DNA from: a virus | Taxonomy: Duplodnaviria > Caudoviricetes | DNA length: 64,000 bases | Direction: 5' to 3' (one strand) | Virus record (IMG/VR): IMGVR_UViG_3300028833_000053 | Shown here: positions 20,171 to 51,026 of the stretch, piece by piece | Position numbering within the stretch: the first letter of the stretch is position 1 | How the letters are laid out: every line of letters starts with the position of its first letter | Notes under the pieces: generated by a model | What the model saw: only the letters and a program-made list of their open reading frames with translations | What the model was told of the DNA's origin: nothing | The model's database searches: none | Position numbers and translations under genes: made by a program

Positions 20171-20230
20171 GTTTGATTCAATATGGCACATAAATGGTAA
20201 ATACCTTTGACAAATACAGGATTCAGAATC

Positions 20231-22519
20231 ATGGCTACATCAACGGACAAACTTGCACCACGCATCATCATAAACGAGCATGACAACGTTAACAAGAGGA
20301 AGAAGAAGAGAAACCATCCGATAACGCTCATCTTCGGGTTCTCCCCCATGGGACGTACCTGTGAAATGATCGAGTGCAACAGGACGTCCGACATAATGAC
20401 GGAATTCGGAACGCCATTGTCCGCGCCCGAAAAATACTTCATCGACGCAGGACTTCGCCTTGTGGAACAGGGTTCAACAGTGTTGATGACCAGACTTCCA
20501 TACGACAACGAGCAATCCCATACGGTGAAATACGTGGACTACAAGTTGGAAAGTCCAATTGCCATGAAGGACATTATCACCGTCCCCCAAGAATCTGAAA
20601 TGCGCAAGAAGGATGATGACGCTGTTACGATTCTCAAGGAAATGCACAACATAGACCAACGGTTGAACCAAGTTCAGAGAATTTCCCAAATCTCGGATTC
20701 ATCGGACGAGTACATCCACAGCATGACAAACGAACAGTTGGTGGAACTTGAACTTGACCCGCAAAGCAACCTTGAAGCAAACACTTTCAGGATCGTTGAC
20801 ATCAAGGGACATCAATATGGCGTAGGCGCGGGAAAGGTGGCATACAGTGGCATATTCCCAGTCATAACAACCGCTCCAATGGCTTTGTATTACCAAGGAT
20901 ACATCAAGAACACGAAGGGGCTGGACAAGGCTCTTGCCCTCATGGACTTGACGGACGGCATATAGATGTCAACAACCTGGTTCAAGAACGCCGACCCGGT
21001 TGAAGAAGAGACAAAACTGATTCAAAGCGAGATAGTTGCAACCATCAACCAGCAAATCAACTTCGACACGGCAACCAACAGATTCCACAGAAGCCAATCG
21101 GTTCAAGACCTTTGCGTAAAGAGGTTTCCGGTGATAAACATGCTTGAGCGAAACAAGCTGGAGCGAAACCATGTGAAGGACATTGGAGTGCTTGTGTGCA
21201 AGATTGAATGGGACGCTGATCAACAGATAAACACCATTGGCGTTGTAGAGTCATTCGTTGGAAAGTTGGGACGCGACAAGAACTGCATTGACAAGAAGAT
21301 AAACTCCGAATCCAAGTACATCAGGATGTACAAGAACATAAAGGTTCCTGGCGAGACGGACTTCTTCATGGTGAACAACCAAAAGCTGACCTCCCTTGGA
21401 ATGGACTCCGACGAATGCGTGAAGTACATAAACTACAAGACCTCCATCATAGACCCTGTTACGCACATGCTCGAAAGCGTGTACTCCGACATTGATTCAA
21501 TCCAAATAGACACCATATTGGACGCGGGATTGAGCGCAACAGGGTTCGCGGCCTACGTTGACAAGAACGCGGACGGCGAATCGTTCATCGACGACAACGA
21601 AGTGCGCACAAGGGTTGACTGGACAAAACACGAATATCCACCAGAGGAATACATAGAGCAATATGCAAAGGTATGGAACGAAATAACCAAGTTGTTTGGC
21701 GACTTCATCAGGCAAGTGAGGGGAGATTGCGTCTACATCGCGGACGGTCCAAGGATATTGAACTTGGAGAAGAACTACCCCATACGCAACTACACGGACA
21801 TGGAAAACGTGGAAATGTTCACGAAATTCCTTCCATACTTCAACGGCAACACGAACAACTACGTTGCAAGATACTGGAACTGGGTGTACATAGAGGACTT
21901 GCAATGGGAGAACCGAGGATTCTGGGTTCCGGGCTCCGTGGTGATGGGAAGCCAATTGGCTATAAACGACCATGACGGACAAGTTTGGTATGCTCCCGCT
22001 GGACAATCAAGGGGTTTGGTTCAAAACGCCTATGACGTGAGCGTTAAGACAAAACAGTACAATTCCGAAAACGACTTGCTCTACCAAAACAACTGGAACT
22101 TCTTCAACATCTACCAAAACGAGGGTGTTGTGGTTGACGGACAGAAGACGCTTCAAGTGAAGAAAACCTCACTTGACCGCCTCAACGTCAGGAGAATGGT
22201 GTGCTACGTCAAGCAACAGTTGAGAGAGATTGCGAACAGATACAAGTACGAACCGCATACCTTGACGATACGCAATTCATTCAGGAACGATGTCAAGGAC
22301 ATGCTTCGCAACATCCAGCGCACAAGCGGCATTAGCGATTTCGTTGTGATATGTGACGATTCAAACAACTCAACCGAAACACTGGACAGGCATGAACTTT
22401 ACATGAAGGTTGGAATAAAGCCAATCAAGGCGATTGAATACATCATAATCGACCTTGATTTGATAAACAGCAATGTTGGAATCGAGGAAAACCTTGTCGT
22501 GATGAAGAACAAGTCTTAA
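20231..22519 (+). CDS. Tail sheath protein paralog 1 (gp18-like, ~762 aa, one TAG=Gln)
   Basis: N-terminal 'APRIIINEHD' and C-terminal 'WYAPAG..RG', 'GQKT...LDRLNVRR', 'KPIKAIEYI'; the halves are joined by TAG at 20963; GTAAATA at 20197. Confidence 0.85.
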
Positions 22520-28503: not shown

Positions 28504-30273
28504 TTATTGTTGTTCATCATTCAAGACATTTCCATCATCGTCCGTCACTTGAACTTCCCCATCCTCGGGCTTTTCCACTTCATCATCGTCACCCAACGTC
28601 ACTGAATTGTCGGCGTTTGGCTCGTCCTTTGGTGGAGGGGTGGGGTTTTCTTTTGGCTTCTGTTCCGTGGGCTTTGGCTCCGGCTTGGCTTCAGGCTCCT
28701 TGTCAACGGTCACCTGTTCCTTGTTGTTCCCCTGTGGCTTTTCCGGCGGTGGAGGCGTTTCCTTTTCAGGTTCCTCTTCCTGCTTGTCCGTCACCTGAAC
28801 TTCATCGTCATTGTCATCAACGATGCCATCGTCCTGGTTCTTCAGCTCGTCACGCTCCTTGTCGTCAATCTTCTGCTGTTCCTCACGCTCCCTCTTGCGC
28901 TCCAGTTCGTCAATTTCGCGCTTGATTTCAACAGGGAACTTTGGGGTGAAGGACTGCTTGCTTTCCCTAACGTCAAGGCAGTTCTCTATGAGGAAGCACT
29001 TTATGCAGTTGTCCTCACCGGGCGTGAAGTCCTGGGCGTAGAAGTACGTGCTTCTTCCACGGGTCTTCGTGTTCCTTGTGCGGTAGGAATAGGGCGCAAC
29101 CTTCCTTGAAATGACTGTTCCATCTTCAACGGTCTCGTACTTCAACCAAACCATCTTGTGATTCTCTGCGCATTGGGCTATGATGTCCCACATGTCGTTT
29201 TGACGGGCTTCCTCCATCAACTGCGCATCTTCGTCGCCGTCCTCGTTCACCTTTCTCTTTTTCCTCCTGCGCCTTTTCTTCTTTGGCTCTTCCTCTCCTG
29301 TGTAGTAGGACTTGCCATTTGGCAGTGGTGCGTTTATCCCCGGAACTTCAACATCGTCTATTATCCACTTGCAGTTCTTGCAGTACACGCCCTTAAACTC
29401 TATGGTGTACTGGTTGTTCACTATGAGCCACTTGGAGTATATCGGGAACGATGTGAGGAAATCGTCGTCGCCAGTCTCTATGATTCGCTCTATGGACTGC
29501 TCACCGGACGCCATGTCGCGAAAATCCCCAATGAACACGGCGCCACCGGCAAGCCTTTCATTTCCCTTGGCTATGTCGGTTCCAAACCAGCAAAGGTCTA
29601 TGAGGTCTCGGTTGGTTACGCGCACGTCCATGTACTGTCCACGTTCCATGTCATGCTCTATGGCATAGCGGCGCAACGCCTGTCCACACTGGTATATTAT
29701 CGTCTTGAACATCTTCTTCGCGCTGCACACTATGGATGCGTCAGGTTGCTTTTGGGAAATGCCATACAGCCTTCCATCCTTCAACTCCACTATGGTGTCG
29801 GAGCGGTTCGCGCTTCCCTTTTTCCCATGCTCCTCGGATGCGTCCACAACGTCCACTATGTCAAGCACAACGTGAACGCCATAGTTGTCCGTTATGTCAA
29901 GGTGGCAGAGCCCGTTGCTCTCAATCTCGCTGCGTATGAAACCCTGCAGTCCGATTTCATTCGCCTTTCCGGGGCGGTATATGCCACCCTTCTTCAACTC
30001 CACGATGTACACGTCATCCATTCCATCCTGCATGATGCCAAGCCAATAGCCGTCCTTCTTGGTTTTCCTTGGCACGGCGAACTGTATTCCAAGTTCCTCT
30101 GCAAGGTCGTTCACAAGGTGTTTCCTTGTTTCCTTTGGATTTGCGGAGTTTATCTGAATAACCTGAAGGTTCTTGCGCTTGTTCTTCAAATGAACATCAA
30201 GCCCATGCGACTGGAACAACTCAAAGAAATGTTCCAATGGCAGAACCTTGCTTTTTGCCTCGTGTACTTTCAT
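28504..30273 (-). CDS. Modular protein: PD-(D/E)XK-like nuclease domain + WYL domain + P/E/K-rich tail
   Basis: 'GKANE...RSDTIVE....YGISQK' nuclease-like motif; 'WLKYE....ISRKVAPYSYR...YFYAQD....IKCFLIENC.DV' WYL-like fold. Confidence 0.6.
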   Translation of the reverse strand: MKVHEAKSKVLPLEHFFELFQSHGLDVHLKNKRKNLQVIQINSANPKETRKHLVNDLAEELGIQFAVPRKTKKDGYWLGIMQDGMDDVYIVELKKGGIYRPGKANEIGLQGFIRSEIESNGLCHLDITDNYGVHVVLDIVDVVDASEEHGKKGSANRSDTIVELKDGRLYGISQKQPDASIVCSAKKMFKTIIYQCGQALRRYAIEHDMERGQYMDVRVTNRDLIDLCWFGTDIAKGNERLAGGAVFIGDFRDMASGEQSIERIIETGDDDFLTSFPIYSKWLIVNNQYTIEFKGVYCKNCKWIIDDVEVPGINAPLPNGKSYYTGEEEPKKKRRRRKKRKVNEDGDEDAQLMEEARQNDMWDIIAQCAENHKMVWLKYETVEDGTVISRKVAPYSYRTRNTKTRGRSTYFYAQDFTPGEDNCIKCFLIENCLDVRESKQSFTPKFPVEIKREIDELERKREREEQQKIDDKERDELKNQDDGIVDDNDDEVQVTDKQEEEPEKETPPPPEKPQGNNKEQVTVDKEPEAKPEPKPTEQKPKENPTPPPKDEPNADNSVTLGDDDEVEKPEDGEVQVTDDDGNVLNDEQQ

Positions 30274-30283: not shown

Positions 30284-33200
30284 TCAATTGAACTTCAGCC
30301 AAGACGGCGCCCCGTATCTTCCCTTGTGCTGCTCCATTTCGTTCTGGAAGCATCTTCCTATTTCATGCCTGGTTTCATCATCTTCCCACATTGGGGAGTC
30401 AATAAGTGCATCGTACATGTCCTTTGCGGTCATCAAGTCACGGTAGTCAAGGGAATCATCGTTGAACAGGATGTGGATTATCTTGTCGGGGTCGTCAGTG
30501 ATGAATTCCTTTTCAACGTCCCATCCCTTTGCATATCCACCTGACTTCTTCACTTTCCTCTTCCTGTGAACCTTGAACAGCCCTTCGTTGAACTTGAAGT
30601 CATAACGTATCATGTCAACTGGCATCTTGCCCTCTCCGGGAATCTCATCCGTCTTGAGGATTTCCCTGTGGCCGCCCATCGCAATAGCCTTGAGCAGAAT
30701 CATCCTTATCGCCCCCTTTGGATTGATGTCGTCTGGATTCTCGCCATCCGGCACTTCAAGTTCCTGGTTTCCGTGCATTCCCCACGTCACGAACTTCATG
30801 TTGTTCGTGATGACGAAATCCAACTGCACGTACTTGTTCTCCTGCTTTCCATCGTCGTTTGCAATCGGCCAGAAGCATGACACGGACTTCCATCCATATC
30901 CCTTCGCGGTCGCATCGTAAACGTCGAGTTCGTCGAACAGGTCTTGGCAGAAGTCCACGAATTCCTCTGGTGTTTCGCAACCGGTTCCCTTCATCACCTT
31001 GTCCTGTGGCATTGCAAGGTCAATGTCCCCTGACGTGCCGCCCGGAAGTTTCTTTCCGGTTGAACCCACGCTTTCAACATCATCCTTCGTCAAACCCAAT
31101 TTTGGAAGAAGCCTCTTGAAGATGTCATCCAAAGTGCCTTTGACGTTTTCCTGGTTTATCCTTGCTTTCAGTTCTTCCGGACAATCGCTCTTGGCATGTC
31201 CACCCTCGTTCACCTGTTGTTTCTTGTTGAACTTGTCGGCTCTTGTCTGGTCGGTCATTGAAGGATAGTCGCCACTTTCGGGATTCAATATGGAATACAC
31301 TTCCTCAAACTGCTCTTCGCTCAATTCGCTTGGGAGAACCTTGCGCAACGCCTCCTTGTCGTCGATGTGGTCTCTGACATAGGAAGCTGAAATGTTGTCG
31401 TTCCCCTCTTGTGTTGCGTCAATGGCGTTTTCCTCTATTGGAAGTATCTCCACGTTCTGCAGAGTGTCCTTGAACTTGTCGGTTGTGAACGCGCTGAACC
31501 TTGACATGTCATCTTTCTTTGACAAGCCAAACATGACCTTGCAGTTGGAGAAGTGGCGAACGGTTGCGGAAATCCAGTTCATTGGATTCAACGTCATTGC
31601 TATCTGAACGTTGTCAAGGTGCGCCGCCTTGCAGTAGATTTCAAGGATTTCTCCCGCCACGAAATTCGGCATTGCGCGTCCCAACTTGTCGTATCTCTGG
31701 GATGCCACGTTTGTCTGTCCGGAAACCGCCACGATAACCTCGTCGCAAATCTCGGCGTAGTGCTTTATCATGTCAAGGTGTCCCTTGTGCGGAGGTCTGA
31801 ATGAACCCGGAATCAGGGCAATGGTCTTTCCCTTCTGGTCAACAACCTTGCCGTCAATCATCTCCACAAGGGACATGACGTCCGTGGTCAGCCTTGATGG
31901 GTCAAACCTCTCTGGCAGGTTCTTCGCCCTGTCCTTTGAGATTCCATCTATGAACTTCGGTAGGTCCGTCCTTGTCTCGGCGTTCTTCACAAGTTCCTGT
32001 GCGCGTTCAATGTACTTTGGCAGAAGTTCCGAATACTTGTCTTGGTATTGCTCTGGGTTCTGCCTCACCTTGTTCACCATCTGGACAAGGCTTGCGCGTT
32101 CGGGGCTTCCCGTTATGTTCGCAAGGAAGAGCTTCGTGAAGTCCTTCATTTCGTCAATCTCTGAGAAGTAGCCGTTGCGTATGTCCTTCCATGACTGGTA
32201 GTGTATGCCATAGAGACGTCCGTTCAACTCGAAAGCCACGCCCTCAAGAGAACCATCGTCAGCCGGCATTATGCCGGGGTTCTTGAACTTCTTCTTCATC
32301 AAGTCCGTCATGGATGCGTTTATCTAGTCCCTTACGGTCTCCGCCTGGTCTTTCTTCATCTTCTCGGGTGGCGTGTTCTTCAAAGCCTGTATGACTTCAT
32401 CCGGGAAGTCCGAAGCAGAAACCTCAACTTCCTGAGCGAACTTGTTTATATCGAAGTAGGAGGCTGAGGAATCCGAAAGTTCGGAGCAGGCGAAGTCAAT
32501 CACCTTCTGCTTCTGCTCCGGTTCAAGGTCAAACGTCCTCTCCTTCGTCATACCCTTCGCGTCAATCACAACAAGAGAACCCTTTGAACCCAGCTTGTTC
32601 GCGTCATAGGTCGTGCCGACATAGGTTATGGTTCCGTTTTTGTCCTTGAACTCGTCGCCATTCGCAAGAAGCTCGCCAATCAACTTCACGCCCTCAACCC
32701 CAACTTCGTGAAGGAAACCAGCCATCTTCTTGTTCTGGTGTTGTTCAACGTAGTCGTAGAAGTTCCTTTCGTGTGGGTGTACGCTCTTGTTGGATTCCAC
32801 GCCCTGCTTGTCCATCAACCCGGAATATGAAAGCTCCATGAACACCTTGCCGTCCATCCAGGCAACCCTAAAAGGATAGCCGTCAATCTTTGGCGTGGTC
32901 TTTATCATCAACGAGGAATCGTTCACTCCCGAAATGAAGTCCTGAAGAAACTGGCGCAAGTCCTTTCCAGTCAATTGGTGGATTTTCGTCATGGCTTGAC
33001 GTGGCGTGTCAATCTCCGCCATGTCCTTCGTGGAACGTATGGATTCGTCGATTTCTTCCGGTGTTTCGTAGTCGCTCACCTTCAATCCAAGGAAATCCTC
33101 CAGTTCGGGTGGTAGGTAGTCTATGCTTCCCTTCTTCAAGGGTCTTTCAATTCCCGTCTTGAGGGATTTCTTGAACTGCTCCGCCCTTGCTGGGTTCTTC

Positions 33201-35083
33201 AATATCCCCTGCTTCTTCACGGCTTTCCAGGCATCTTCCCATGTGAGCATGTTTGCTGAATCCACCCCAAACAGGATTTCGCATATTTCGTCCGGGTCGT
33301 TGGAAACAAGTTCACGTCCAACTTCCTTTTCGCCAGAAACATGGATTCCCTCTTCACCCTTCTTGCCCTTCATCAAGGGACGCTCAAAGATCTTCTTGAA
33401 CAGACCACCTTCCTCATGACTGTACGAGTATCTTTCCCATTTCACGGGCTGCTCTTCGTCATAGCCATTCACCATTCCAGTCTCTTCTACCCTGAATCCA
33501 GACACCCGGGCGGTCGCCGTGATTATCTGGTTGCGCACAAGTCCCTTGACGTACTTCTGCCCCTCGATTTCCTCCGGCCCATATTGTCCCCAAGCCTGGA
33601 ACTTGAGGTTGTCAACGGGAATCAGGTCAAGTTGAACGATTTGCCCTTCTTGCTCCCCATCGTCGTTGCTTATGGGATAGCCAACGGAAGTCCCTTGCCA
33701 TTCCCATCTTGGGAAGTTCTTCACGTCAAGACCGTACTTCTTGCCAAACTCTTCCGCAAGGTCAAACCATTCGCTCACGTCCGTTATTCCCTGTTTCTCT
33801 TCAAGGGCTTTCTTTGAGATTGCTATGTCTATGTCACCACTTGAACCACCGTCAAGTTTCTTTCCCGTTGAGCCTAGAAAGGAGATGTCATCGTCGGACA
33901 ATCCGAAAAACTCCTTCACCTTCTGTTTCGCGGAGTCCATCGTGGATTTCGCGTTGCGCTGGTTCAATCTGACGGCGCCCGGTATTCTATGTCCGCCCTC
34001 GTTCATCAACTTGCTTTCGCTTGTTGGCTTCTCCTTCTTTGGCTTTGGGGGTGGTGGCGTGTAGTCCACAAGGTCAAGTTCCTCCAGCATTTCCTGTGGG
34101 ATGGTCATTCCCGCGTTTATTTTTCCGATTATCTTTTCGCGCAGGGAGTCCAAGAAGATTTTCCACTTGTTCGAGTCTTTCGCCCAGACGGCTTCATGCG
34201 CAGCTTTCCAAGTTCCGTCCCACGTCATCAAGTCCTTGCCCTTCACCTTCGGACCAAACATTTTCTTCGCTATTTGGTCGGGATCGTCCGTGACAAGACT
34301 TCTCTTCGCTTTTTCGCCTGACTTGTACACGGTGTCCGTTGCGCCCTTTGGTTGGTTTGTCATGGGTTCACGATAGCACTTCTTGATGTTGAGTCCCTCT
34401 GGCGTGTAGAAGGAATATTCCTCCCATTCCACCATATCCTCCTTTATCCCGTCCTTGCCTTTGACAAGTCCAGTCTTTATAACTTTCACGTCGTCCATGG
34501 CGTGAGCCGCGGCCTCGAATATCAAGTTGCGTATGCAACCCTTTATGTATTGTTGACCTTCAATTTCCTTGGGTGCGTATTGAGACCACACTTGGAACTT
34601 CATGTTCCTTGAAGTCATCATGTCAAGTTGGACAAACTCACCCTCTTGCTTGCCGTCGAAATTCTGAATTGGACACTTTATGGAATAGAGGTTGCCTTTC
34701 AGCCTTGACTCTATTCCCATCTTGTTGAGTATGGGCGTGGCGTATTCCGCTATGGCTTTCGCTTGTTCATCAGCGGTCATAGCGTCCTTGAGATAATCCA
34801 CCTTCGTTGCGTCTATTCCAAGGTCAATGTCACCGCTTGAACCCCCTGCCAGCTTCTTGCCCGTGCTTCCCAATGGCTGCACGTATTTTCGGCTTATGCC
34901 AATCGCCGGAAGTATGGTTTCGTAGATGTACTTCAACGTTGCCGCCACGTTCTCCTAGTGGATTCGCGTTGCGTCATCAAACATGTTTCCACCTTCAAGC
35001 ATCAAGTTCTTTTCTTCGCCCACAAGGATGTCACGCAAGTCGTTTGCGTCCATTTTGCTCACAAGTTCTTTTATATTGTCCAT
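30284..35083 (-). CDS. ~1599-aa multi-enzyme protein: NTase-NTase-RNA-ligase-like-HIGH transferase-NTase (two TAG=Gln)
   Basis: Three 'GSTGKKL.GGxSGDID' pol-beta-type NTase domains, KIDG...GE...EGVAF ligase motifs, 'PGSFRPPHKGH'; TAGs at 34955 and 32324 are in frame. Confidence 0.8.
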
Positions 35084-35114
35084 ACTGTTGTACCCGTAGA
35101 TTTCTGGTTCTATG

Positions 35115-35148
35115 CTATTTACCATTCTTCTTCAGATATGGTAAATAG
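35115..35148. promoter_or_regulatory. Palindromic divergent late-promoter pair
   Basis: CTATTTACCAT-N12-ATGGTAAATAG inverted repeat between the two NTase genes. Confidence 0.65.
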
Positions 35149-35155: not shown

Positions 35156-37042
35156 ATGAAAACCAAATCCCATTTCAACGAAGGCGGAAACATGTTTCCC
35201 GATTGCGTTCCCATCCACCAGGAGAACGTTGAAGCGACTTTGAAGGACATACAGGAAAGGTATTTGTCCAAGCAGTTGCATCTTGACCCAAAGACCGACA
35301 CATCCACGTTGGGGTCTACCGGAAAGAAACTCAAAGGTCAGACCAGCAACGATATGGACATTGCAATCGACTACAACAAGTTGAAGGAGATTTGGGATTT
35401 GCCAGAATGGACGGGGAAGCGTCTTGAGGAATGGGTGGATTTGGCGAAGGATGCCGCCGACAAATGTGGCGTTCAATTCAATATGGCCGCCACGGTATGT
35501 TCCCTGCGTTGGCCGATAGCAAACGCTGATGGGGAGCAAGAAGGTAAATTCATACAAGTTGACTTGATGCCCACGCCCAACATGAAGATGACAAGTTTCG
35601 GAAGGTTTTCCCAACAGGCGAAGGCTGGCGAGACTTTCTTCAAGGGGACTGTCAGGAACATAATGCTTTCCATAATGGCGCGTTGCTCATACCATAAAGA
35701 CTTGACCGACGAAACCCACGTCAAGGTTCTTGACGATGGCACGGAAAAGGAAGTACACAACGAGTACGAGGGTTGGACGTATGACGGCAACACCGGACTT
35801 CACCTTTGCCACAAGAAGTACGAGCAGTACACCAAGAATGGCAAGGGCTACAAGAAGGGGGATTGGAAACCCCATGCTTCCGTTGTTGAATCTCCTGTCA
35901 TTTCATCTGACCCAGACGAAATCGTGGAAATGATATTTGGCAAGGGCGTGACTCCTGAGGACATTGACACCGTGCAGAAGATGTGGAAAGCATGGAAGAA
36001 CGCCCCAGCGGTGAAAGAGAATCCAGATTTGCTTCAAGAGGTGCGTGAACAAATTGAAAGGTCATCCACAAGAAGTCCGGACATCCAATTCCCGGATTTT
36101 GATGGTGAGGAATTCGTCAATGAAGCGAAGATTAAGAAAGACCCATCCGAGCAGGTTGACGATTACATCAAGTCCCTTTCCAGAGATCAAATCCAAACTC
36201 TCACGTTGAGGTGTTCAGAACTTTTGGACAAGTGGAACGAGCCACAGGGTTCCGACACAATCCTCAGAGTGAGGCATGTGGTGGACAACGATGAGAGGTT
36301 CCTGAAGTTCTTGCGCAAGACCGTTCCATTGACGGAGCCAAAGCCCCGGGACATGGGCGCAAACACTTTTGTTTCGCGTTTCTTCGACCCGCCGTTTGAT
36401 CTTGAGGAGTTCATTGGAAAGATGGCAAAGGAGAAAGGCATACCCTTTGCGCAAGCGGAGGAGGAATGGACAAGAAGCAACATGGACAAGACACACGTTG
36501 GAAGATACGCCCATATGCTTGCAGACGATGCCGTGAACGGACGTCCGCCCTCAAAGGAAGGTACTAATCCAAAGGAGATTGCCATTTACACCGCCATTTA
36601 CGACTACGCCAAGAAGCTGGTTGAGGATGCCACAGACGTTGAAAGCGAGGTTTCCCTTCACGCAAGTTCGGCAACAGTTGGTGGCAAGTTCGACTTGTTG
36701 ATGAAGAAGAATGGCGTTTGGACTTTGGTTGACTGGAAAACCAATGGCGAGGAACTTGATGACATTCCAACAGGCAAGGTTGGACTTGACGAATTGACAA
36801 AGGACATCAACAACAACTCCTACAACAAGTACGCGCTCCAGTTGAACGTCTACGAATGGGCTGCGAAGGACTCCGGCAAGATTCAGAAGGATGCCGTTGT
36901 GAGCAAGGAACTCCACCACTTCCAGTACCTTGAAGACGGCAAGCCGGTGAAGATAAGGGTGGTCAAGGTTCCAGATCTCCAGGAACTTGTCCAGGCGATG
37001 GTGGAACGGGCAGTTGAAATGGGCGTCGTGAAACGGAAATGA
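35156..37042 (+). CDS. Pol-beta-type nucleotidyltransferase fused to a PD-(D/E)XK (Cas4/RecB-like) nuclease
   Basis: 'LGSTGKKLKGQTSNDMDIAID', 'FIQVDLM'; C-terminal 'GRYAH...ESEV...GKFDLL....VDWKT...YALQLNVY'. Confidence 0.8.
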   Translation: MKTKSHFNEGGNMFPDCVPIHQENVEATLKDIQERYLSKQLHLDPKTDTSTLGSTGKKLKGQTSNDMDIAIDYNKLKEIWDLPEWTGKRLEEWVDLAKDAADKCGVQFNMAATVCSLRWPIANADGEQEGKFIQVDLMPTPNMKMTSFGRFSQQAKAGETFFKGTVRNIMLSIMARCSYHKDLTDETHVKVLDDGTEKEVHNEYEGWTYDGNTGLHLCHKKYEQYTKNGKGYKKGDWKPHASVVESPVISSDPDEIVEMIFGKGVTPEDIDTVQKMWKAWKNAPAVKENPDLLQEVREQIERSSTRSPDIQFPDFDGEEFVNEAKIKKDPSEQVDDYIKSLSRDQIQTLTLRCSELLDKWNEPQGSDTILRVRHVVDNDERFLKFLRKTVPLTEPKPRDMGANTFVSRFFDPPFDLEEFIGKMAKEKGIPFAQAEEEWTRSNMDKTHVGRYAHMLADDAVNGRPPSKEGTNPKEIAIYTAIYDYAKKLVEDATDVESEVSLHASSATVGGKFDLLMKKNGVWTLVDWKTNGEELDDIPTGKVGLDELTKDINNNSYNKYALQLNVYEWAAKDSGKIQKDAVVSKELHHFQYLEDGKPVKIRVVKVPDLQELVQAMVERAVEMGVVKRK

Positions 37043-37086: not shown

Positions 37087-38367
37087 ATGAAATTCAAGAA
37101 GATTGTTAAAGAGGCATCTGATTTGGATGATAGAGACTATGAGACTGCGCAAAGCATGTAGGATTTTGCGAAAGAGAACATTCCTGAAGTCAAGGCAGTT
37201 GTCTCTGGAAGCGAAAGGGGAAAGCTATATGTGATGATCAAATCAGATGTATACATAATGGCTGACCAGGCAAAGGAAATCGCAAAGGAATTGATACGTG
37301 GAACCGGTGCCCGTGGCTACCGGTATGCTGGGGTGAACAAGGCAGATCCATATATTGTCCTTGTGAACAAAGGTGTCAGAATGAACGAGGCGAGGAAGCC
37401 AATGAAGAAAGCGCAGAAGAAGCAACAGTGGTGGTTTGACATTCCTGGCGCGAAGTACATCTACCACGGAGACTGGTCTGACCCTGAAATCCAGTACAAG
37501 GGTTTCTCAATCAACTATTGGGACGTGGAGGAAGGTTTGCTTTCAGCCTACCGTGACGAGCATCCAGAAGACAAGGATGACAAGGGATTCGACGCGTGGA
37601 TGGCTGAACAGGGTGGACCCGGTGGATACCTTGAAGGTGAACTTGACAATTGCATTTATGCAGCACTTGGCGACGACAACGTTGAGGAAGAGCCTTGGCT
37701 TGGAATACCGGACGCCTACAAGGTGAAGGAGGTCTATGGTCAGGGAGAAGGTGAGTTCATCTTGTACAAGGATTGCCTTGTGAACGTTGCGGACGTTGAC
37801 TACTATGATTCGGAGTATGATGATTGGTATCCCTATTCCGACAATCCAGAGAACTTTGAGGCATACTATAGCGATCCGAAGAACAAGAAGGAACTGGTTG
37901 ACAAGCTCAACGAGCAGGTTTCCTACTACATGAGCGAAAGCACGAAGTTCAACGAGGGTTGGCTTGGTGATAAGGTGAAGGCCGGTTGGAACAAGGTCAA
38001 GGACGGAGCCAAGAAGGTTGGCAAGGCAATTGGAAAGGCTTTGAACGGTCCGTTCAAGAAAGGTGACGTTGTTCAGATGTCTGGCGAGGATGGTGAGAAG
38101 TTCAAGGGAACTATTATGGGCTATGACCGTGGCGAACAAACATACAGTGTGATGCTGGGACGCTAGGTGGCAAATGAGGGTTTGCAAGAGGACGTTCTTG
38201 ACATGGCCGACAGAGAGGACGAGTTGGTGTGGATGATTCAAGAGAAGTTCTGGGATTTGGCCGAGGAAGCCGATCCTGACAGTTTACGCCAACTCATAGA
38301 GAACTGCGTTGAACTTGAGAAAGTCAAACCAGGGAAACTGGATGAGATTATCAACCAAGAGTTCTGA
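37087..38367 (+). CDS. Modular acidic protein (candidate head cargo; two TAG=Gln)
   Basis: ATG 37087 after GTAAATA (37048); TAGs at 37159 and 38164 join the fragments; two W(F/L)xIPxA repeats; xKE/xNE boundary sites. Confidence 0.65.
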
Positions 38368-38853: not shown

Positions 38854-38885
38854 TATTTACCACAATTTGCGTGGAATGGTAAATA
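38854..38885. promoter_or_regulatory. Divergent GTAAATA late-promoter pair
   Basis: TATTTACCA...TGGTAAATA with the same 25-nt offset as the pair at 35116/35141. Confidence 0.65.
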
Positions 38886-42576: not shown

Positions 42577-43503
42577 TTATGCAACCTTCTTGCCGGTCAC
42601 GGTCTCCAGCTTCTTGAGGAAGCCACCGAACGTGGACTTGCCAATCGTGGTCTCCATGAACTTGCGCTCGAACTTCGTCTTCGTGTCCTTGCCAATCGTG
42701 TGCGTGGTGAAGTCGGCGTAGGCGCGGATGAGACCCCAGGCGTTGCCATAGTGCGCCTTGTTGCCCGCGTCATTGTAGCAGGACAGGAACATCTGGCGGT
42801 TCTTCTGAACGCTCGCCTTGACGGTCTCGCTCATGCTCTCGCGGATGGGGAAGAGCAGCTCAAGGAACAGCTCAATCTGCTTCTTGTCCATCTTGATGTC
42901 GGCGTAACGCTCCGCGGCCTTGCGGAGACCATCCATGTAGCGGCGGACGCTCACAAGAGCCTCCTGACCCTGCCTCATGCGCGAAGGAAGGTTCACGCTG
43001 TGCTTGACGTTGATGGACGAGGCGATGCCATTGAGACCAATACTCACCTGCGCGTAGTTGGCGGTGGAAAGGGCAACGATGTTCGCCCGAACCTTGTACT
43101 TGCCATTGAAGCTGTTCTGAAGGACGATGCAAGGAACGTAGTCTTCGCCAAGAATCTTGATGGCGGGAAGCTGACCCACAACCCAGCACAGCCCGGAGTA
43201 GGTCATTCCACCACGGGTGAACTTCAGCTTGGAGTCGATGTAGTCGGCGAACGCAAAGGCTGTCGCGTTCTGGCAAATCTCATATCCCTTGCCAACGATG
43301 CCAAGGTAGCCATCCTTGTCCGTGCGGACCGTGGCGAACTTGTCGGCGATCTGCTTCATGTTGGGTCCGAAGAACAGGGGACGCTTCTCAACGTCAAACG
43401 CCAGACCCACTGCCTCAAGTGCGTCCGAAATCTTCTTCGTGTTGGTGGAACGTCCAACGTTCTCCCAGGTTGCCACGCGGTTGGTCTGCTTGACTGATGC
43501 CAT
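42577..43503 (-). CDS. DUF932-family phage/plasmid protein
   Basis: 'ALEAVGLAFDVEKRPL', 'ATVRTD...LGIVG.GY.I.QN..AF.F.D', 'GNAWG...AYADF..H'. Confidence 0.8.
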   Translation of the reverse strand: MASVKQTNRVATWENVGRSTNTKKISDALEAVGLAFDVEKRPLFFGPNMKQIADKFATVRTDKDGYLGIVGKGYEICQNATAFAFADYIDSKLKFTRGGMTYSGLCWVVGQLPAIKILGEDYVPCIVLQNSFNGKYKVRANIVALSTANYAQVSIGLNGIASSINVKHSVNLPSRMRQGQEALVSVRRYMDGLRKAAERYADIKMDKKQIELFLELLFPIRESMSETVKASVQKNRQMFLSCYNDAGNKAHYGNAWGLIRAYADFTTHTIGKDTKTKFERKFMETTIGKSTFGGFLKKLETVTGKKVA

Positions 43504-43604
43504 AACTACTACTCCTTGTCAGGAACTCATGGGCTTCCCGTTCTCCCATCCACAATCGGCGTTTCCTCAACCTTGAAGAACCCTTACCTCTCGTGAACAC
43601 CAAC

Positions 43605-43633
43605 AGTATAGCATATTGGCGTCCGGAAAGCAA
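43605..43633 (-). promoter_or_regulatory. Early sigma70-type promoter
   Basis: TTGCTT-N17-TATACT with extended TG, followed by GTTG as at 10205. Confidence 0.7.
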
Positions 43634-43772
43634 TAGGGTTTGGAAAATAAATTGAAAAATATTTTCTGTGGCTATAATGTTCCAAAAGGGGTCTGAAAAA
43701 CGCCATTTTGGAAAAATATAAAGGATGGACATTTAGCCCATCCCTTATGCCCTTGTTCTGATTCAACAAAAA

Positions 43773-45644
43773 TCAGAGGTCATCGTCCTCAAGTTCGGAG
43801 TCAGGAAGGTCAATTTCCTGGTTTTCATCGTTGGAAGTATCGTAAATGTCCTAGATGCTCAATCCAAAGGTGACATTGTATGTTCCACCACATTGATCGC
43901 AGTAGAAACTTGCGTCAAATGTTCCACCCTCCTTGCAGTCGCCTTTCAATATGTCAAGGTCATCAACGGTGCATCCCGTAAACCCGCATCTGGGGCAGGT
44001 GTGCGCCTTGTCGGCTTTATGACTTTCCCTGAACTTCTTGGTGGATTCATCATATTCATCATCACCTGAAAAGTCTGTGGCGTTGTAGGAGCCGAATTCC
44101 TCAAGGTAGTCCATGAAGGATTTTGGATTTGTCTCAATCCACTCGCGGATTTGTTCATCGGAAGGCTCTTCATATGGTTCAAGACCAAGTTCCTATTCAA
44201 GAAGAGGATATTGCCTGCAGTCCTTCTTGACAATATAGTAAACGTCATCCCAAGACATTTCAACATCAAGTGGTTCAACATACACGGTTGTACCCCAATC
44301 CTGTATTCCAGGCGCAATGTCCTTTATGGATTCCTTGAACATCAGGATTTTCCCCTTGTTTGTTTTATACATGTTTCCACTTTCTGAAACATATTTCAGT
44401 TTTCCGTATTTCTTCGTGAAGTACCTGGACTTCTCAAATCTTTCCTTTGTCACGTTTATCTTCTTCATAGATTCGTTGAATTCGTTCCTGTTTTTGGCAC
44501 GTATGGTTTCCAGGCATTCCGGTTCGCCGTAGATGTCTCCATTTGGCATTTCATATTCGCCACCCATAATGCTTACAGAAACTGGTTTGTCCTCAATGGC
44601 TGAATATTCATCGTATGCTTTTTTGCCATCTTCAACCGCATCGTCAAATGAATAGTAGATCTTTGCGTATTTCATTTCATCAACCACTTCGTATTCCCCG
44701 TATTCGTCCATACGTTCAATTTGCAGCGTGAACACTTCCTTCTTTTCGTTTTTCATTTCTTTATGTCCTCTTGTAGGGCTTTCAATCGTATTTTCGGAAA
44801 CGGGCGTTGCCTTTGGCTTCATGTATTCGCCATCAACCTGGTCGGTCTATGGCATGTCTCCGCGTCCATGTGCGTTTGGCGTTGGCCGAGCCTCGTCCCT
44901 CATCACCAACACGTTGTTCCACAGATAGTTGATGGGTTCTTCCTCAATGTACTTGGCAAAGGTGTTTTGTGCATCTTCACTCATCGTGGACTAGCACCAT
45001 TTCTTGAACGCCCCCTCGTCAATCGTGTAGAGGTTGTATTCTGAATCCACCGTAGCCTGTGGCAACTCTCCACCATCCTTCGCTATGAACAACTGCATCT
45101 GCACCAGCTTCAAAACATCGTCCGCGCTTTTGAACATATCGGACTTTATCACGCGCGCAATCATCTTCGCGTCGGGGTTCAAGCAGTAGATTTGGCTCCA
45201 TCTGTGGTGGCCGTCAATGATGTAGCTTACCCCATCAACTTCAGCGACAACAAGTGGCGTGTCCTTGATTATGACGGGCTTTCCAGAGAACGCCATGTCA
45301 ATCATTTCCGGACGCTTCTCCAATGGGAACGCCAGGGACTTTTCCATGTCAACCTCGAACTGGGTTGGATGGATGTTGCGTATGTCCATTTCCGTTGCGT
45401 TGGAGAATTGCACGGAAACGCCGTCGGGACTGTTGAACTTGTCAATGATTGCATCGCGCAAGTTCGCCACTTTCTAATCCGTAGCCAGTGTGTTCAAGTC
45501 GTCTATGAACGCCTCGTAGTTGTCATCCTGCAACGCCACCATCGCGTTGTGGAAATCGCGTTCCGTGTCGCCGGTTGGCTCTATTTCATTTATGCGCTTT
45601 CCACCAAAATCCGTTTTACGTTTCTCTTTCAATATCACTTTCAT
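43773..45644 (-). CDS. Modular protein with ParB/Srx-like domain and C-terminal Zn ribbon (~623 aa, five TAG=Gln)
   Basis: 'IIDGHHRW' ParB-like motif, CPRC...CDQC; TAGs at 45474, 44991, 44847, 44193 and 43851 are all in one frame. Confidence 0.65.
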
Positions 45645-45656
45645 CTTAAAGTATCC

Positions 45657-46673
45657 TTATGCGAAGAACACCTCTTGCCCAAACGAGGTTTCCGCTCTCA
45701 AATTTTCCACTATCTTGTCAAGTTCCTGTTGCCCCTCGTCTCCAATCTTCGCCGAGACGTTTCCTCCACCAGGCAACGTGATTCCTTCGTACTTTCCACG
45801 AATCTGCCCCAACATTATCTTGCAGTATGCCAATGTCAGTTTCTTCACATGCTCGTTGCAGTACAGTTCATCAAGCGGTGGTTCAATTTCAGCCTCAATC
45901 ACCATTGGAACGCCCCATCTTGGGTCCGGTCTACCGTGTAACTCCGGATACGGCCATAGTTCCGAATGGTATGGTGGCGGCAAGTTGCCGCATCCCCTTG
46001 GCTCCGGTATCAACACAAGGCGTTTCGCCACTTTGTTGTATTGCCAATCTGGGTTCGTGGAAAGAACGCGCTGTGCCATCTTCTTGAATTCAACGAAATT
46101 GTGGTACGTTATGAAGGAACCAGCAAGGTTGCCGCTTCCGAAGTTGCCCGTTGAAGTTCTGTTTATCATCCAAGGAAGCACAACGCCCCAACCGGAAAAA
46201 TCCCAACCATACTGCACGTCATACACTTGCACAACGTTTTCCCTTGACAAGTCTATGCCCACGGCGGGAACGTATTCCCTTGAGGACTTCAACAGATACT
46301 TCTTTGGGAACGAGGCGTACTTGGTGTACATGTTCAAGGCGTTTTGTATTGCCGCGTCATAGTGGTTCTCACGAAGTTCAATGGTCACAAGGGGATAGCC
46401 CATCATCGTCATAACGTAGTCAATCAACTCGCGCTTGCTCTTTATAGCTGGATGAAGGAACGTGGAGTCGGGATCAACATGGACTTCCTCGTACTTGGGA
46501 TAGTCTTTCAACGGTGTTTCTTGTTCCGTCTTGAGATACGTTATGTGTTCCGCTTCCCTTGCTTCGTGGATTTCCTTGTGCGTGGCATCACTTACGTCCG
46601 GCTTGATTTGCAATATGCGGTTCAAGCCAGCCACATTCAGTTCGGGAAGTTTGTCTGTTGTCGTTATTTTCAT
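45657..46673 (-). CDS. Neck/head-completion protein, T4 gp13-like
   Basis: 'SKRELIDYV..MMGYPLVTIEL...HYD.AI..AL' and 'KIMLGQIRGKYEGITLPGG'. Confidence 0.85.
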   Translation of the reverse strand: MKITTTDKLPELNVAGLNRILQIKPDVSDATHKEIHEAREAEHITYLKTEQETPLKDYPKYEEVHVDPDSTFLHPAIKSKRELIDYVMTMMGYPLVTIELRENHYDAAIQNALNMYTKYASFPKKYLLKSSREYVPAVGIDLSRENVVQVYDVQYGWDFSGWGVVLPWMINRTSTGNFGSGNLAGSFITYHNFVEFKKMAQRVLSTNPDWQYNKVAKRLVLIPEPRGCGNLPPPYHSELWPYPELHGRPDPRWGVPMVIEAEIEPPLDELYCNEHVKKLTLAYCKIMLGQIRGKYEGITLPGGGNVSAKIGDEGQQELDKIVENLRAETSFGQEVFFA

Positions 46674-46674
46674 C

Positions 46675-47106
46675 TTAAATTTCCAGCTTTATGGAGTAGA
46701 TGCCAAGGTCAGCGCATTTGGTGAAATCCAATATCTTCACGGGGACTTCCTTTCCAAACTGGCTTCCAACCAGGGTTGCCGCATCCCCTTTGTGGAACTG
46801 TTGGACGTATTTCTTCTTTGGCTTGCGTTCACCACTTCCTGAATTCAAGGAACCTGCAACTGCGGCAGCAACCGCCGCGACATTCTCAAACATCTTTTCT
46901 TTCAGGTATATGTCGCAAGTTTGGTTCTTCTTGATGTAATCGTGTATGTATCCAACTTCCTCACGTCCATCGTCGCCAACCAACTTCACTTCCGGCAAGT
47001 CGCCGAAAGCGTCCTTTATCTTCTTCCATCCCGATTTGAGTGAGTCCATGAAAGATTCGTTGTGGATTCTGCGCCACTTTATCCTATGTTGAATATGCGT
47101 TGCCAT
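46675..47106 (-). CDS. Small hypothetical protein (candidate head cargo)
   Basis: 'IHNE|SFMDSLKSGWKKIKD' resembles 'FNE|GWLGDKVKAGWNKVKD' in 37087-38367; GTAAATA at 47130. Confidence 0.6.
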   Translation of the reverse strand: MATHIQHRIKWRRIHNESFMDSLKSGWKKIKDAFGDLPEVKLVGDDGREEVGYIHDYIKKNQTCDIYLKEKMFENVAAVAAAVAGSLNSGSGERKPKKKYVQQFHKGDAATLVGSQFGKEVPVKILDFTKCADLGIYSIKLEI

Positions 47107-47337
47107 TTTGGATTTCCTTTACTAACTGGTATTTACAAACAACGCACGTTATTTCCACATCTGAAAAATTCACCAGTTCAAAAGTATTTACCATTGGGGT
47201 ATAAAATTTTTACAGGGTGGTTCGGATTTGGGGTTCTTCCGTGTAAATAATATTGAACCATGGATTTTGGATAGGCTATCCGAAATGAACATGGATAAAA
47301 ACAACACAACAAACAAAACAAAGAGGTTATAACTACA

Positions 47338-50300
47338 ATGGGAAATAGAACAATCAAAGCCCCAGGTGTAGAGATTATCGAGCACGACCTATCTGGTTAC
47401 ACAACCACCAACTTGGGTACGGGCTGCCTTATCACTGGTTTTGCGCAGAAGGGTGAAGACCTGGTTCCGATGAAGATTACGAATCGTTCCAGCTGGCTTC
47501 TCAACTTCGGCGCTCCTACCAACGAGGCCGAGGAATATTTCTACAACGCTGGTATGGAAGTTCTGAATCAGGGCGGATTCCTTTGGGCCGCGAAGATTCC
47601 TTATTCCAATGACATCGCGGGCATTTATGCCGCTGCGAAGTTCAAGGTTTCGGGCAATTATGGCTTGTATCGCAAGAGCAAGGAAAGTGGCAAGTACATT
47701 GAAGATGAATTGGATGCAGATGGAAATGAAATTGCCGCAGGAGGAGAGGATGACACTCTGGTTGCCGCCTACGCCGTTGATGGCTCACTTGGACGTTTCT
47801 GCAGGAACTACCGTTCTCTCAAGGAACTTGGCATCAACCACCTTCAGCTTATTGCTCCAGCTGGAAACGAATTCATTTCCAATGATTTGGTTGAGGAATA
47901 TGAGACTGGCGAATCCGAGCCGGGTTCAAATACAATCTATTTGGTTGACAAGACCAGGGCAATCTACACAAGAACCACGGAAATTTCTGACAAGCAGGAC
48001 AACCGCGACTCACGTTATTGCATTGGCATTGTGCCTGTGTTGACAACTCTTTGCAACACCGCGTATTTCCAAAGCAAGTCCACTGGGGTTGTGGCCGACG
48101 TTCCAGAGTTGTATCAGCCCGTGCGTTCGCTCAAGACCATCACGTTCCCTGCAGGCGCCGCTTCCGATGCTGAATATCAGCCAACGAAGTTCACGAAGGA
48201 CGATCTTCACACGCCTTTGATGAAGGAAGCCAACGTGTTTGAGACTTCCCTTTCCGAAAGGGCGGCTATGATTGGTCAAAGCTGCCTGGTGAACGGCAAC
48301 CTCGTTGATGGCAAGTTCAAGCCTTATGTTTGCAATGACGTTTGCGTTGTTGTGTTCAAGGCTTTTGTCTCCACTGAGGATGGCAAGATTGAGTTTGAGC
48401 CCGTTGAGACGTTCGTTGGTTCTCTTGATCCAAAGGGGCGCAACGAGAAGGGCTTGACGACGTTCATCGACACCATCATCAACAACAACTCCGAGTACAT
48501 CTACTGCTTCTCCAACCTTGAGAATCCAGAGAAGGTGTTGAACCCAGATCACGGTTTTGTGGTTGGTTCCGACAGCGAGTATGGTGAAATCGAGGGGGAT
48601 TTGAAAGATACCGACGAGTATATGGCCGCAACTGAATTTTCAGCATATGCAGCTCAAATGCTCGGCTTCGATCCCGATCAAGAAAGTGAAGAAGGGATTG
48701 CTTCTGCATTGAAAAAATATTACAATCAGGATGCCAAGGCTCAGGTTTGCGTACTAGATGAATTGGTAATGGGAGGTAACAAGAATCCAACTTGGATTGC
48801 AAAGCATTTGTGTCCATATGACACTAATACTACGGACACCCAGGAATACGGTAACTATTCATCAGCAATGAACCTTCTTGATACAAACGATGTAACGAAG
48901 AAGTGTATGACTGGGTATATGCACATTCCAGAAAAGTTCATTGTTCAGGAACCCACGATTTCCTATACAATCACACCGAAGGATGACAAGACCTCTACCG
49001 CAGAGGTGAAGGGAGATATTGGAATTGTTATTACACGCAAGGATGACATTACGGATGATGATAAGAAGTATCTTATCGAGTCCTATAAATATTCCTTGAA
49101 CATAGGTGTGCCAACTGACGACGAGGATAAATATCGCCTTAATTGCATTGAGGGAATGGACTTGGGTTCATTGAATATTTTGAATTCAACTGACTATATA
49201 CGTGCCATTCTTAACTTTGAGGAATTGATTGACTTGAAGGACTTGAGCAAGGAAATTGATCCAAGTGGCACTCCTGCAACCGAAGTTACTACGGTAATGA
49301 AGAAAAAGGCAATCCAAGCTCTCATTCTCAGTTCCATAGAGAAGAGTGGAAGGTTCAAGATTCGTTTGCGCAATCTTAAGAAGTCAAAGATAAACCTTGA
49401 CAAACTTGAGGAAAAGTTTAAGAATTATTGGACGAATTATACTGATAATGATAAACGAGAGGCTAGTGATGAAGCAAAGTACATCAAGGACTTGTACAAT
49501 TCCTACTTCGAGACTGGACTTCTTTCCGGAATCTTCTTCGTGCATGATAACACAAACGAGAAGAAGACGCGCGGTGCGTTCCTTGAGAAGGATGCCTTGG
49601 AGAAGAAGTTGGATGATATTGTGAACGTCACTTCCCGTGATGGTGAAGGGGGAGAAGGTGGAGAAGGTGAAGGCTCCAAGGAGGGTGAACCAACCAAGGA
49701 TGGTGAACTCACCAATGAAACCTGCTACAGGTACTTGAAGCTCAAGGCATATCTCAACTCAGTGTACTACAAGAACGAAGCATCAATGCTTGAGGCACTT
49801 GCCAAGATCCTGGAAGATTGCGCCTATGCCCAGAAGCGTTATGTTGAGTCCCAGAGGAACATCGACGACTCCAACATCATGCTTGGTTTCTATCCTGAAA
49901 TGGCTGAGCCAATCATCACCTACACCACAATCGCGCAGTCCTTGAACAAGATATTCGACACCATGTCGGACATCCACACTTCTGACATTGACGTGGTTTG
50001 CGACGCCGGTATCTCCAATATTGCGCAGTTCGTGAAGCAGGTCTATGACCCAAGCGCGGACGATGGCGAGGATGTTGGTGGTCTCTACAACCCAGTCAAG
50101 TACAGCTCGTACTTCAAGTTCAACAAGAACACGGACTTGGCGTATTGGAAGACCATCATCTACAAGTACGATACCTTCTGCAAGTTCCGCGGCGACTGCA
50201 TGTTCTGCGCCGACGGTCCTCGTGGAATGGTCTTGATTGGAAACAAGCAGGTGGTGCGCAAGACCAAGAAGGACACTTCCGTTGACCTCAACATCTTGCC

Positions 50301-50967: not shown

Positions 50968-50990
50968 TAATCATTCGGAAATCCATAATG

Positions 50991-51026
50991 AAACAAGGTC
51001 GTTCCTTCGGGAACGACCTTTGTTTT
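50991..51026. terminator. Intrinsic terminator with cUUCGg tetraloop
   Basis: AAGGTCGTTCC-TTCG-GGAACGACCTT flanked by A and T runs. Confidence 0.85.

Follow-up and report, generated by a model that had tools for sequence, protein, structure and literature searches.

What would a phage do with three nucleotidyltransferases, an RNA ligase-like domain and a member of the HIGH transferase superfamily joined in one polypeptide chain, and at what point of the infection would such a chain act? The question is raised by a gene in IMG/VR virus record IMGVR_UViG_3300028833_000053 (Duplodnaviria; Caudoviricetes), a genome of 433,895 bp with direct terminal repeats that is rated 100% complete. The stretch of DNA analysed here, the window, is 64,000 nucleotides long and corresponds to the minus strand of bases 55500–119499 of that record; the gene, referred to below as the polyprotein gene, lies on the minus strand of the window at 30284–35083. 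The answer tentatively preferred, at a rough probability of 0.45, is that the chain would be a late precursor, cut by a gp21-type protease and delivered by the virion, with its nucleotidyltransferases (NTases) and ligase mending RNA ends while its HIGH domain makes nicotinamide adenine dinucleotide (NAD) or nicotinic acid adenine dinucleotide (NaAD).

A recoded frame and its domains

Across this genome, many long frames appear only when TAG is given a sense meaning. With TAG as glutamine, the minus strand from 30284 to 35125 is a single open frame of 1613 amino acids (aa), and from the ATG at 35083 the open reading frame (ORF) comprises 1599 aa. Retranslation thereby upholds the single chain of ca. 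1599 residues proposed in an earlier note, which had been made from the letters of the window alone. Two in-frame TAGs are present, Q57 (34955–34957) and Q934 (32324–32326), and translation table 11 yields two ORFs instead, of 675 and 874 aa. The start at 35083 is likelier than that at 35125, because the promoter-like element GGTAAATA, discussed below, overlaps the first codons of the longer frame; residue numbers are nevertheless counted from the upstream ATG at 35125 throughout.

Reading TAG as Gln is supported by the position of Q57, which is the Gln of an I-x-Q-x-N motif, invariant in the three NTase repeats of the chain and the consensus in an alignment of 83 family sequences. The genome encodes 36 tRNA genes, with a cluster of 34 at C1:310,600–323,600 and, apart from it, one with anticodon CTA (410,487–410,576) that would read TAG. 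A recoding artefact was ruled out on the grounds of the TAG on an invariant Gln, the existence of orthologous polyproteins and this CTA-anticodon tRNA.

All parts of the chain are given here with their positions on the minus strand of the window. A leader of 30 aa (aa 15–44; 34994–35083), a putative propeptide ending in NLMLE/GG, precedes PolX-like NTase domain 1 (aa 45–370; 34016–34993), which contains the Q57 TAG and carries GSTGKK..GDIDL at aa 86 and VQLD at aa 165. After a Pro/Lys-rich linker, a short piece (33998–34015) lies between the twin putative cleavage sites TSE/S (E370) and MNE/GG (E376) and leads into NTase domain 2 (aa 377–694; 33044–33997), the domain that was modelled, which ends in EIDE/S. 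The Rnl2/REL1-like ligase domain follows (aa 695–985; 32171–33043), containing the Q934 TAG and the motifs K746-I-D-G, G-E818-L-L, E961-G-V and W-K980-D. It is tied by a confidently modelled helical bundle (aa 986–1092; 31850–32170) to the HIGH-superfamily adenylyl/cytidylyltransferase domain (aa 1093–1296; 31238–31849), with PGSFRPPHKGH at aa 1106 and ISASYVR at aa 1245. PolX-like NTase domain 3 (aa 1308–1613; 30287–31204) comes last, after QVNE/GG, and is of the type found behind the HIGH domain in all relatives. The motifs quoted in the earlier note were all recovered in place, namely LE/GG at 34994, NE/GG at 34000 and 31207, IDE/S at 33046, KIDG at 32890, EGVAF at 32245, PGSFRPPHKGH at 31810 and three copies each of GSTGKK and VQLD, while the GTAAATA-type element that it had placed upstream of the ORF corresponds to the copy of GGTAAATA at 35116–35123 (minus strand).

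PolX-like nucleotidyltransferase repeats

The three repeats share 31–36% identity pairwise. Searched against 1.84 billion proteins, clustered at 50% identity, a profile of the three retrieved 763 cluster representatives at E ≤ 1e-3 and 88 at E ≤ 1e-30, so that they represent a real family and not a chance resemblance; most of its members are standalone proteins of ~290 aa. No model in Pfam, PHROGs or NCBIfam covers the repeats, PDB sequence profiles gave chance matches only, and the PolX Pfam domain was not found in the polyprotein at E ≤ 1.

An AlphaFold model of repeat 2 (83 sequences; predicted local distance difference test, pLDDT, 91) places the family by its fold. In Foldseek, Pol beta, Pol lambda and TdT rank on top (E ~1e-4), with low TM-scores of 0.33–0.39. 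An independent aligner run against the PDB ranks TdT (Z 9.8), Pol beta (9.7), Thermus PolX (9.6) and African swine fever virus (ASFV) PolX (9.0) highest, with Pol lambda also among the top matches, which together span Z 9.0–9.8 and a root-mean-square deviation of 3.2–4.5 over 164–196 residues of palm and thumb; of the 176 residues of ASFV PolX, 166 are aligned. RNA uridylyltransferases, poly(A) polymerases, CCA enzymes, MenT and CD-NTases match only a core of ~100 residues (Z 6–8.7), the lead of PolX over the terminal uridylyltransferases (TUTases) being ~1 Z unit.

Among the 83 sequences G53, D66, Q133, D135 and R166 are invariant, and S54 and D68 are present in more than 90%. The motif LGSTGKKLxGGxSGDIDh is found in all three domains and in P0002, the product of the divergent partner gene described below, and it agrees with the pol-beta superfamily pattern hG[GS]-x9-13-D-h-[DE]-h, the third carboxylate being D135 in V-Q-L-D. 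The catalytic residues are kept in all four NTase copies of the phage. The modelled domain starts with one helix ahead of the palm, and the NTases have neither the 8-kDa nor the helix-hairpin-helix (HhH) DNA-binding domain of PolX. By predicted fold and conserved catalytic motifs the repeats are pol-beta NTases, as the earlier note had supposed, and more precisely a new PolX-like family in which the DNA-binding domains of PolX are missing, a likeness which that note had overlooked.

The RNA ligase-like domain

The middle module of the chain (residues 700–1296) is found in only ~30 clusters. It shares 48–60% identity with four other polyproteins, and a search for related loci carrying it returned a single contig, 85% identical. 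For a model of residues 700–1100 (pLDDT 88), the best PDB matches are trypanosome REL1 (Z 9.6 over 206 residues), NgrRnl of Naegleria (9.2) and T4 Rnl2 (9.0), with DNA ligases and capping enzymes ranking lower (Z 5.5–7.6); the Foldseek ranking is the same (E 8e-6). K746-x-D-G, G-E818-L-L, E961-G-V and W-K980-D show no variation among five diverged relatives. On the evidence of this model, the KIDG domain is a covalent nucleotidyltransferase fold, nearest to the Rnl2/REL1/Rnl5 RNA ligases.

At the sequence level the connection runs through relatives. The domain is homologous to the C-terminal half of P0022 (hhalign 99.9%, E 5.5e-31), and the corresponding domain of P0022 and P0026 scores 26.7–26.8 bits against Pfam RNA_ligase PF09414, with a cut-off of 27 (E 6.8e-6 for P0022). 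PF09414 has no direct match in the polyprotein or the genome, the domain matched nothing in Pfam, PHROGs or NCBIfam, and PDB sequence profiles gave chance matches only. No PF01068 match is present in the genome, which encodes a separate LigA-type NAD-dependent DNA ligase. In some relatives the place of the ligase is occupied by DUF6267, whose likeness to the ligase domain is weak and lies around KxDG (hhalign 39%); this genome has no DUF6267 match, and the literature search found no mention of that domain.

The HIGH domain and NAD salvage

The HIGH domain scores 28.2 bits against PF01467 (CTP_transf_like; cut-off 21) and 37.8 against TIGR00125 (cut-off 27.7), and HKGH at aa 1113–1116 and ISASYVR at aa 1245 represent the HxGH and ISxxxxR motifs. 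Both the HIGH-family transferase and the RNA ligase-like domain foreseen in the earlier note are thus substantiated, the former by these models and motifs, the latter by the REL1, NgrRnl and T4 Rnl2 matches of the predicted fold together with the ligase motifs. As to the substrate, the NMNAT/NaMNAT models (NadM, NadD and NadR) score 12–24 bits against cut-offs of 112–341, and PPAT scores equally.

A TAG-free NAD-salvage cluster on the minus strand of the window (51400–56429) encodes NadE, a Nampt/NAPRT-like protein, a Prs-like protein and PncA, and has no adenylyltransferase inside it. In three relatives PncA, NadE and NAPRTase lie 3–7 kb from the homologous gene, again with no adenylyltransferase among its listed neighbours. 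The other PF01467 gene of the genome is a TagD-like one only; this 135-aa cytidylyltransferase (within C1:262,685–264,386) adjoins a 408-aa protein with the P-loop N-terminus GTQNTGKST. Judged by gene neighbourhood, which is its sole basis, the best guess is that the HIGH domain makes NAD or NaAD from nicotinamide mononucleotide (NMN) or nicotinic acid mononucleotide (NaMN), making it a candidate for the adenylyltransferase unseen beside megaphage NAD-salvage genes.

Relatives and recurrent fusions

The PolX-like domain is repeatedly found fused to other enzymes. It is joined to Rnl-like domains in P0020, P0022 and P0026, to DUF6267 and CTP_transf_like in P0073, P0080 and P0036, and to a PD-(D/E)XK nuclease in the divergent neighbour of the polyprotein gene. 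This partner gene (35156–37042, plus strand) encodes 628 aa, comprising a 9-aa leader MKTKSHFNE/GG, a fourth PolX-like NTase and, beyond an FVNE/A junction (E at 36122–36124), the nuclease at ~36623–37018 (PF12705, 25 bits). Relatives of ~1100 aa have the order ligase-HIGH-NTase-Nudix, and the constant core across relatives is ligase-HIGH-NTase of the domain-3 type; no Nudix match was found in this genome.

A tblastn search of GenBank phages with the full polyprotein gave no match, and with the standalone homologues as queries it returned Lak phages only. The Lak-B6 homologue (325 aa, starting MSGMAIKG; locus L013, 1353–5940) has no leader and is flanked by a DHFR-thymidylate synthase fusion and by an unrelated pol-beta NTase-like ORF with ten TAG codons. 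Altogether, a large unnamed family of PolX-like NTases spans mega-, jumbo and T4-like phages, with repeated fusions to ligase, HIGH, Nudix and nuclease domains.

Putative processing and virion delivery

The phage is contractile-tailed with T4-type head genes. Its genome encodes a Peptidase_S77 prohead protease of the gp21 family (PF03420, 48 bits; genome 297110–297844) and a Gp23-family capsid protein (PF07068, E 2.9e-72). In the capsid protein GLFTE/AAPS follows a propeptide-like N-terminus of ~54 aa, in agreement with the hydrophobic-x-Glu rule of gp21-type proteases, and the N-terminus of the prohead protease reads MGKLTAKKLIVE/S. The starts of the NTase domains have the same character: at 123 such starts, GG is preceded by Glu 107 times and by the initiator Met 13 times, and position P3 is L, I or V in 95. 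The residues ahead of GG are disordered in the NTase model, and the modal leader of the homologues is 10 aa long. Standalone homologues begin with MKTFKQFLAE/GG, MKSFKLFLKE/GG and similar leaders, to be compared with MKTYQEFIAE, the capsid targeting sequence (CTS) of T4 (PMC8442874), and the contig of one such homologue is T4-like (Phage_DsbA, PhoH, dCMP deaminase).

Similar leaders stand before the ligase (MKFQELLHKKTGVVFE/S), before DUF6267 (MSFIQYLKE/S) and before HIGH-like and NTase domains, and hydrophobic-x-E/small sites are found at every domain junction of this chain and of relatives, in relatives as twin sites of the form h-x-E/S...h-x-E/G/A/S, the Nudix junctions included. The signal is portable and not part of one fold, since it precedes unrelated domain types. 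A further type of start, MK.KK..h-x-E/S/A, opens at least 10 unrelated proteins of the genome against 2 of 2942 internal Met contexts, and in the form MK(W/F/R)KK..h-x-E/S/A it may serve this phage for capsid targeting. The product of 37087–38367 (plus strand) has the leader MKFKKIVKE/AS, and leaders of the latter form are found in nine further unrelated genes.

A homologue from a cultured phage provides a link with virions. The best viral structural match (E 3.2e-13) is a protein of the jumbo phage Atu_ph07, identified by gene order and masses as gp65 (32.16 kDa) and placed in the family by its profile score (E 2.3e-26) and by hhalign (99.6%). In Atu_ph07 virions, electrospray ionisation tandem mass spectrometry detected gp65 by 10 unique peptides covering 36.8% of its sequence (PMC6102473, Table S5). 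In tandem upstream of gp65, ~ten hypothetical proteins of ~30 kDa (gp55–gp64; Atu_ph07 43,318–51,377) are encoded, all of them in the virion proteome. A ligase-HIGH profile gave no match in Atu_ph07, a result of little weight as the profile was a small one of five close sequences only.

Comparison of the relatives showed no conserved h-x-E/small site between the ligase and HIGH domains. Five cleavage products, as the earlier note had expected, are thereby ruled out, and four are predicted, with ligase and HIGH domain staying fused: NTase 1 (45–370), NTase 2 (377–694), ligase-HIGH (695–1307) and NTase 3 (1308–1613). The partner gene is predicted to give NTase 4 and the nuclease after a cut at FVNE/A. 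For packaging and cleavage of the polyprotein itself, indirect support is provided by the head genes, the grammar of the sites, the T4-CTS-like leaders, the virion homologue and the promoter-like element shared with the sheath, protease and giant structural-type genes.

A promoter-like element

The window contains 7 copies of the element GGTAAATA, where 0.6 would be expected, and the whole genome 65. Of the latter, 55 are within 70 nt upstream of an ORF, and most of the 65 stand 5–50 nt ahead of the ATG of a structural-type gene. One copy (35116–35123, minus strand) lies 32 nt upstream of the polyprotein ATG at 35083 and forms an inverted pair with a second (35140–35147, plus strand), 8 nt upstream of the partner-gene ATG. 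Such inverted pairs, ~16 bp apart between divergent genes, are found at 35116–35147 and 38854–38885, and further copies at 18271, 20196 and 47185. Genes behind the element include those of the prohead protease, the sheath, a tape-measure-like protein and proteins of 2147–4826 aa.

The element looks like a T4-late-promoter-like one (compare TATAAATA), and its distribution would fit a late, structural regulon. At some genes the very short distance from element to start suggests near-leaderless mRNAs. The in-frame TAGs would suit a gene that is expressed when the suppressor tRNA is already at work.

Proposed function and rival explanations

In the reading preferred here, the polyprotein gene would be expressed late as a precursor that is taken into the prohead, where the T4 gp21-type protease would cut it after Glu at hydrophobic-x-E/G/S sites. 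Three PolX-like NTases and a bifunctional ligase/HIGH enzyme would then enter the cell with the DNA, alongside the neighbouring NTase and PD-(D/E)XK nuclease. Once there, the NTases would be responsible for extending or rebuilding damaged 3'-OH ends, with trimming left to the nuclease and sealing to the ligase. The activities put forward in the earlier note, tRNA (CCA) end repair and the manipulation of nucleotide signals, have the standing of guesses. As the substrate, RNA (cleaved tRNA, for instance) is favoured over DNA because the ligase ranks with RNA ligases, because the RlaP-Rnl systems discussed below offer a precedent and because a separate LigA-type DNA ligase is present. A more specific form of this proposal, and a decidedly speculative one, is that a pre-made virion-borne kit, with four orthologously conserved PolX-like paralogues of different nucleotide or end specificities, a nuclease and a ligase, restores cleaved tRNAs of the host or the 36 of the phage within seconds of injection, before phage gene expression. 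If true, RNA repair by a virion-borne system would be seen here for the first time, with PolX-type enzymes recruited for template-independent RNA end repair.

Several observations weigh against this proposal. With regard to delivery, the enrichment of CTS-like leaders behind GGTAAATA is weak (p = 0.047), and the MK.KK..h-x-E/S/A pattern was picked after the data were seen. A leader is missing from the Lak-B6 and Atu_ph07 copies and from 13 of the 123 domain starts, and the conservation of E-G-G may be partly catalytic or structural, GG itself being nearly invariant. The Atu_ph07 virion sample was purified with polyethylene glycol only and its list includes ribonucleotide reductase, a RecA-like protein and a single-stranded DNA-binding protein, so that contamination is possible (PMC6102473). 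The ~1100-aa relatives stand in co-directional arrays of replication and nucleotide-metabolism genes, outside structural modules. With regard to function, the PolX likeness, the PD-(D/E)XK partner and the replication neighbours of the relatives speak as strongly for DNA as for RNA; an end-healing kinase or phosphatase did not come to light, though no systematic search was made for one; and PPAT and archaeal NMNAT are equally good matches of the HIGH domain, each over the N-terminal motif only.

The likeness to family X DNA polymerases over palm and thumb, 166 of 176 residues in the case of ASFV PolX against the ~100 shared with TUTases, makes DNA a serious rival target, if on balance an unlikely one. 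The same enzymes would then form a kit for gap filling or tailing, trimming and sealing, akin to base-excision repair (BER) or non-homologous end joining (NHEJ), which repairs or protects the injected 434-kb genome at nicks, restriction or CRISPR breaks or terminal repeats, possibly by ribonucleotide additions that an Rnl2-type ligase seals. T4 Rnl2 does seal nicks with RNA as the 3'-OH strand, and LigD-type NHEJ uses ribonucleotide addition, which together would suit such a scheme, as would the fusion of NTase to nuclease in the partner gene and the DNA polymerase B, 5'-3' exonuclease and primase genes that adjoin the relatives. Against it, RNA ligases rank above all DNA ligases for the ligase domain, a LigA-type NAD-dependent DNA ligase is already encoded, the NTases lack the 8-kDa and HhH domains as well as a Pfam PolX match, and the difference in Z (9–10 against 8.6) is a small margin.

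The arrays in which the relatives are found also suit a chain that is neither cut nor packaged, a cytoplasmic multi-domain enzyme for RNA repair and NAD synthesis whose h-x-E-G-G and h-x-E-S motifs cap or link domains. This is rather improbable. Leaderless Lak homologues beside DHFR-thymidylate synthase, the conservation of a GG motif which begins the ordered part of the NTase model, and the nearby NAD-salvage genes, which are TAG-free metabolic genes, agree with it; but it accounts poorly for one leader and junction grammar before unrelated folds (ligase, DUF6267, HIGH and Nudix), for disorder of the residues ahead of GG, for Glu at P1 in 107 of 123 starts with the initiator Met in only 13, for an element shared with protease, sheath and giant structural-type genes, and for the detection of Atu_ph07 gp65 in virions. 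Very unlikely, finally, is that the NTases make or cap nucleotide signals or modify proteins (CD-NTase-like, or by MNT-like AMPylation) in anti-defence or takeover, with the HIGH domain restoring NAD against NADase defences. CD-NTases and MenT do appear in the fold list (Z 6–7.5), NAD-salvage genes are linked in four genomes and packaged NAD/ADP-ribose enzymes are common in myoviruses (PMC9503650), yet the CD-NTase and MenT matches are the weaker ones and cover only the ~100-residue core, and a polynucleotide ligase as recurrent partner fits end-joining and not signalling.

Neighbouring genes

Downstream, a 589-aa ORF (28504–30273, minus strand) starts 10 bp past the polyprotein stop and is probably co-transcribed with the polyprotein gene; its product has no match in Pfam, PHROGs or NCBIfam. 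The sheath gene lies at 20207–22519, and a second sheath-like gene at 47338–50967 (plus strand) encodes a 1209-aa protein with Phage_sheath_1C at its C-terminus. The gene at 56609–60433 (minus strand) contains seven in-frame TAGs, and its 1274-aa product shows leucine-rich repeats of the BspA type in four regions (251 bits).

Comparison with known systems

The closest parallel for the proposed route is provided by the internal proteins and Alt of T4. Common to both are a short leader ending in hydrophobic-x-Glu (here MKTFKQFLAE in homologues and MKTKSHFNE in P0002), a gp21-family protease, a gp23-family capsid protein with LFTE/A, and enzymatic cargo for the next host cell. The present locus differs in combining several enzymes in one 1600-aa precursor with internal sites and in having a leader of its own of 30 aa, with cleavage and packaging here being putative. 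Multi-enzyme virion-associated chains that a Glu-specific prohead protease cuts at multiple sites are known from large myoviruses such as phiKZ and SPN3US (PMC5694885; PMC9503650). The polyvalent and ejection proteins have another domain set, and Pfam revealed no MuF or other usual polyvalent marker domain in the polyprotein.

Functional coupling of a pol-beta NTase to an Rnl-type ligase is found in the RlaP-Rnl systems of bacteria and jumbo phages, where damaged RNA 3' ends receive one or two nucleoside monophosphates from RlaP, either ahead of ligation or following it (PMC12776372; PMC7824862). The NTase described here is not RlaP and is structurally nearer to PolX; RlaP PF10127 has no match in the polyprotein (E ≤ 1) or the genome (E ≤ 10). 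In addition, the parts are covalently fused, with three to four NTase paralogues, and are probably virion-borne. With the family X polymerases, ASFV Pol X among them, the repeats share the GS..SGD-h-D motif and the third Asp and, as the structural matches suggest, a palm-and-thumb arrangement; their association with a ligase is reminiscent of viral base-excision repair. No sequence similarity is detectable, however, and a GGNA motif at the N-terminus and a helical domain at the C-terminus are additions of the present family.

T4 Rnl2, REL1 and Naegleria Rnl5 have in common with the ligase domain the adenylyltransferase fold and the K-x-D-G, G-E-L-L, E-G and K motifs. The present domain differs in its link to Pfam RNA_ligase, which is only transitive, via P0022, in a conserved N-terminal DTPR..KIHQLTG segment of its own and in the helical bundle that ties ligase to HIGH domain. 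NadM-Nudix and phage NMNAT enzymes, for their part, share GxFxPxHxGH and ISxxxxR with the HIGH domain, and its relatives carry Nudix in the chain with PncA, NAPRTase and NadE nearby; the HIGH domain scores far below the NMNAT equivalog cut-offs, the Nudix domain of the relatives is non-adjacent to it and this genome has none.

Each ingredient has a known relative, be it CTS-borne cargo, polyvalent and ejection proteins, RlaP-Rnl, PolX or NadM-Nudix, while the searched literature contains no description of the architecture with its likely delivery route. For uncultured TAG-recoded megaphages, the locus supplies a capsid-targeting leader and a cleavage code that can be put to the test. If packaging and cutting hold for this chain, immunity that cleaves RNA or DNA would face counter-defence at a new level, and the cargo that phages inject would extend beyond inhibitors, ADP-ribosyltransferases and RNA polymerases to nucleic-acid repair enzymes.

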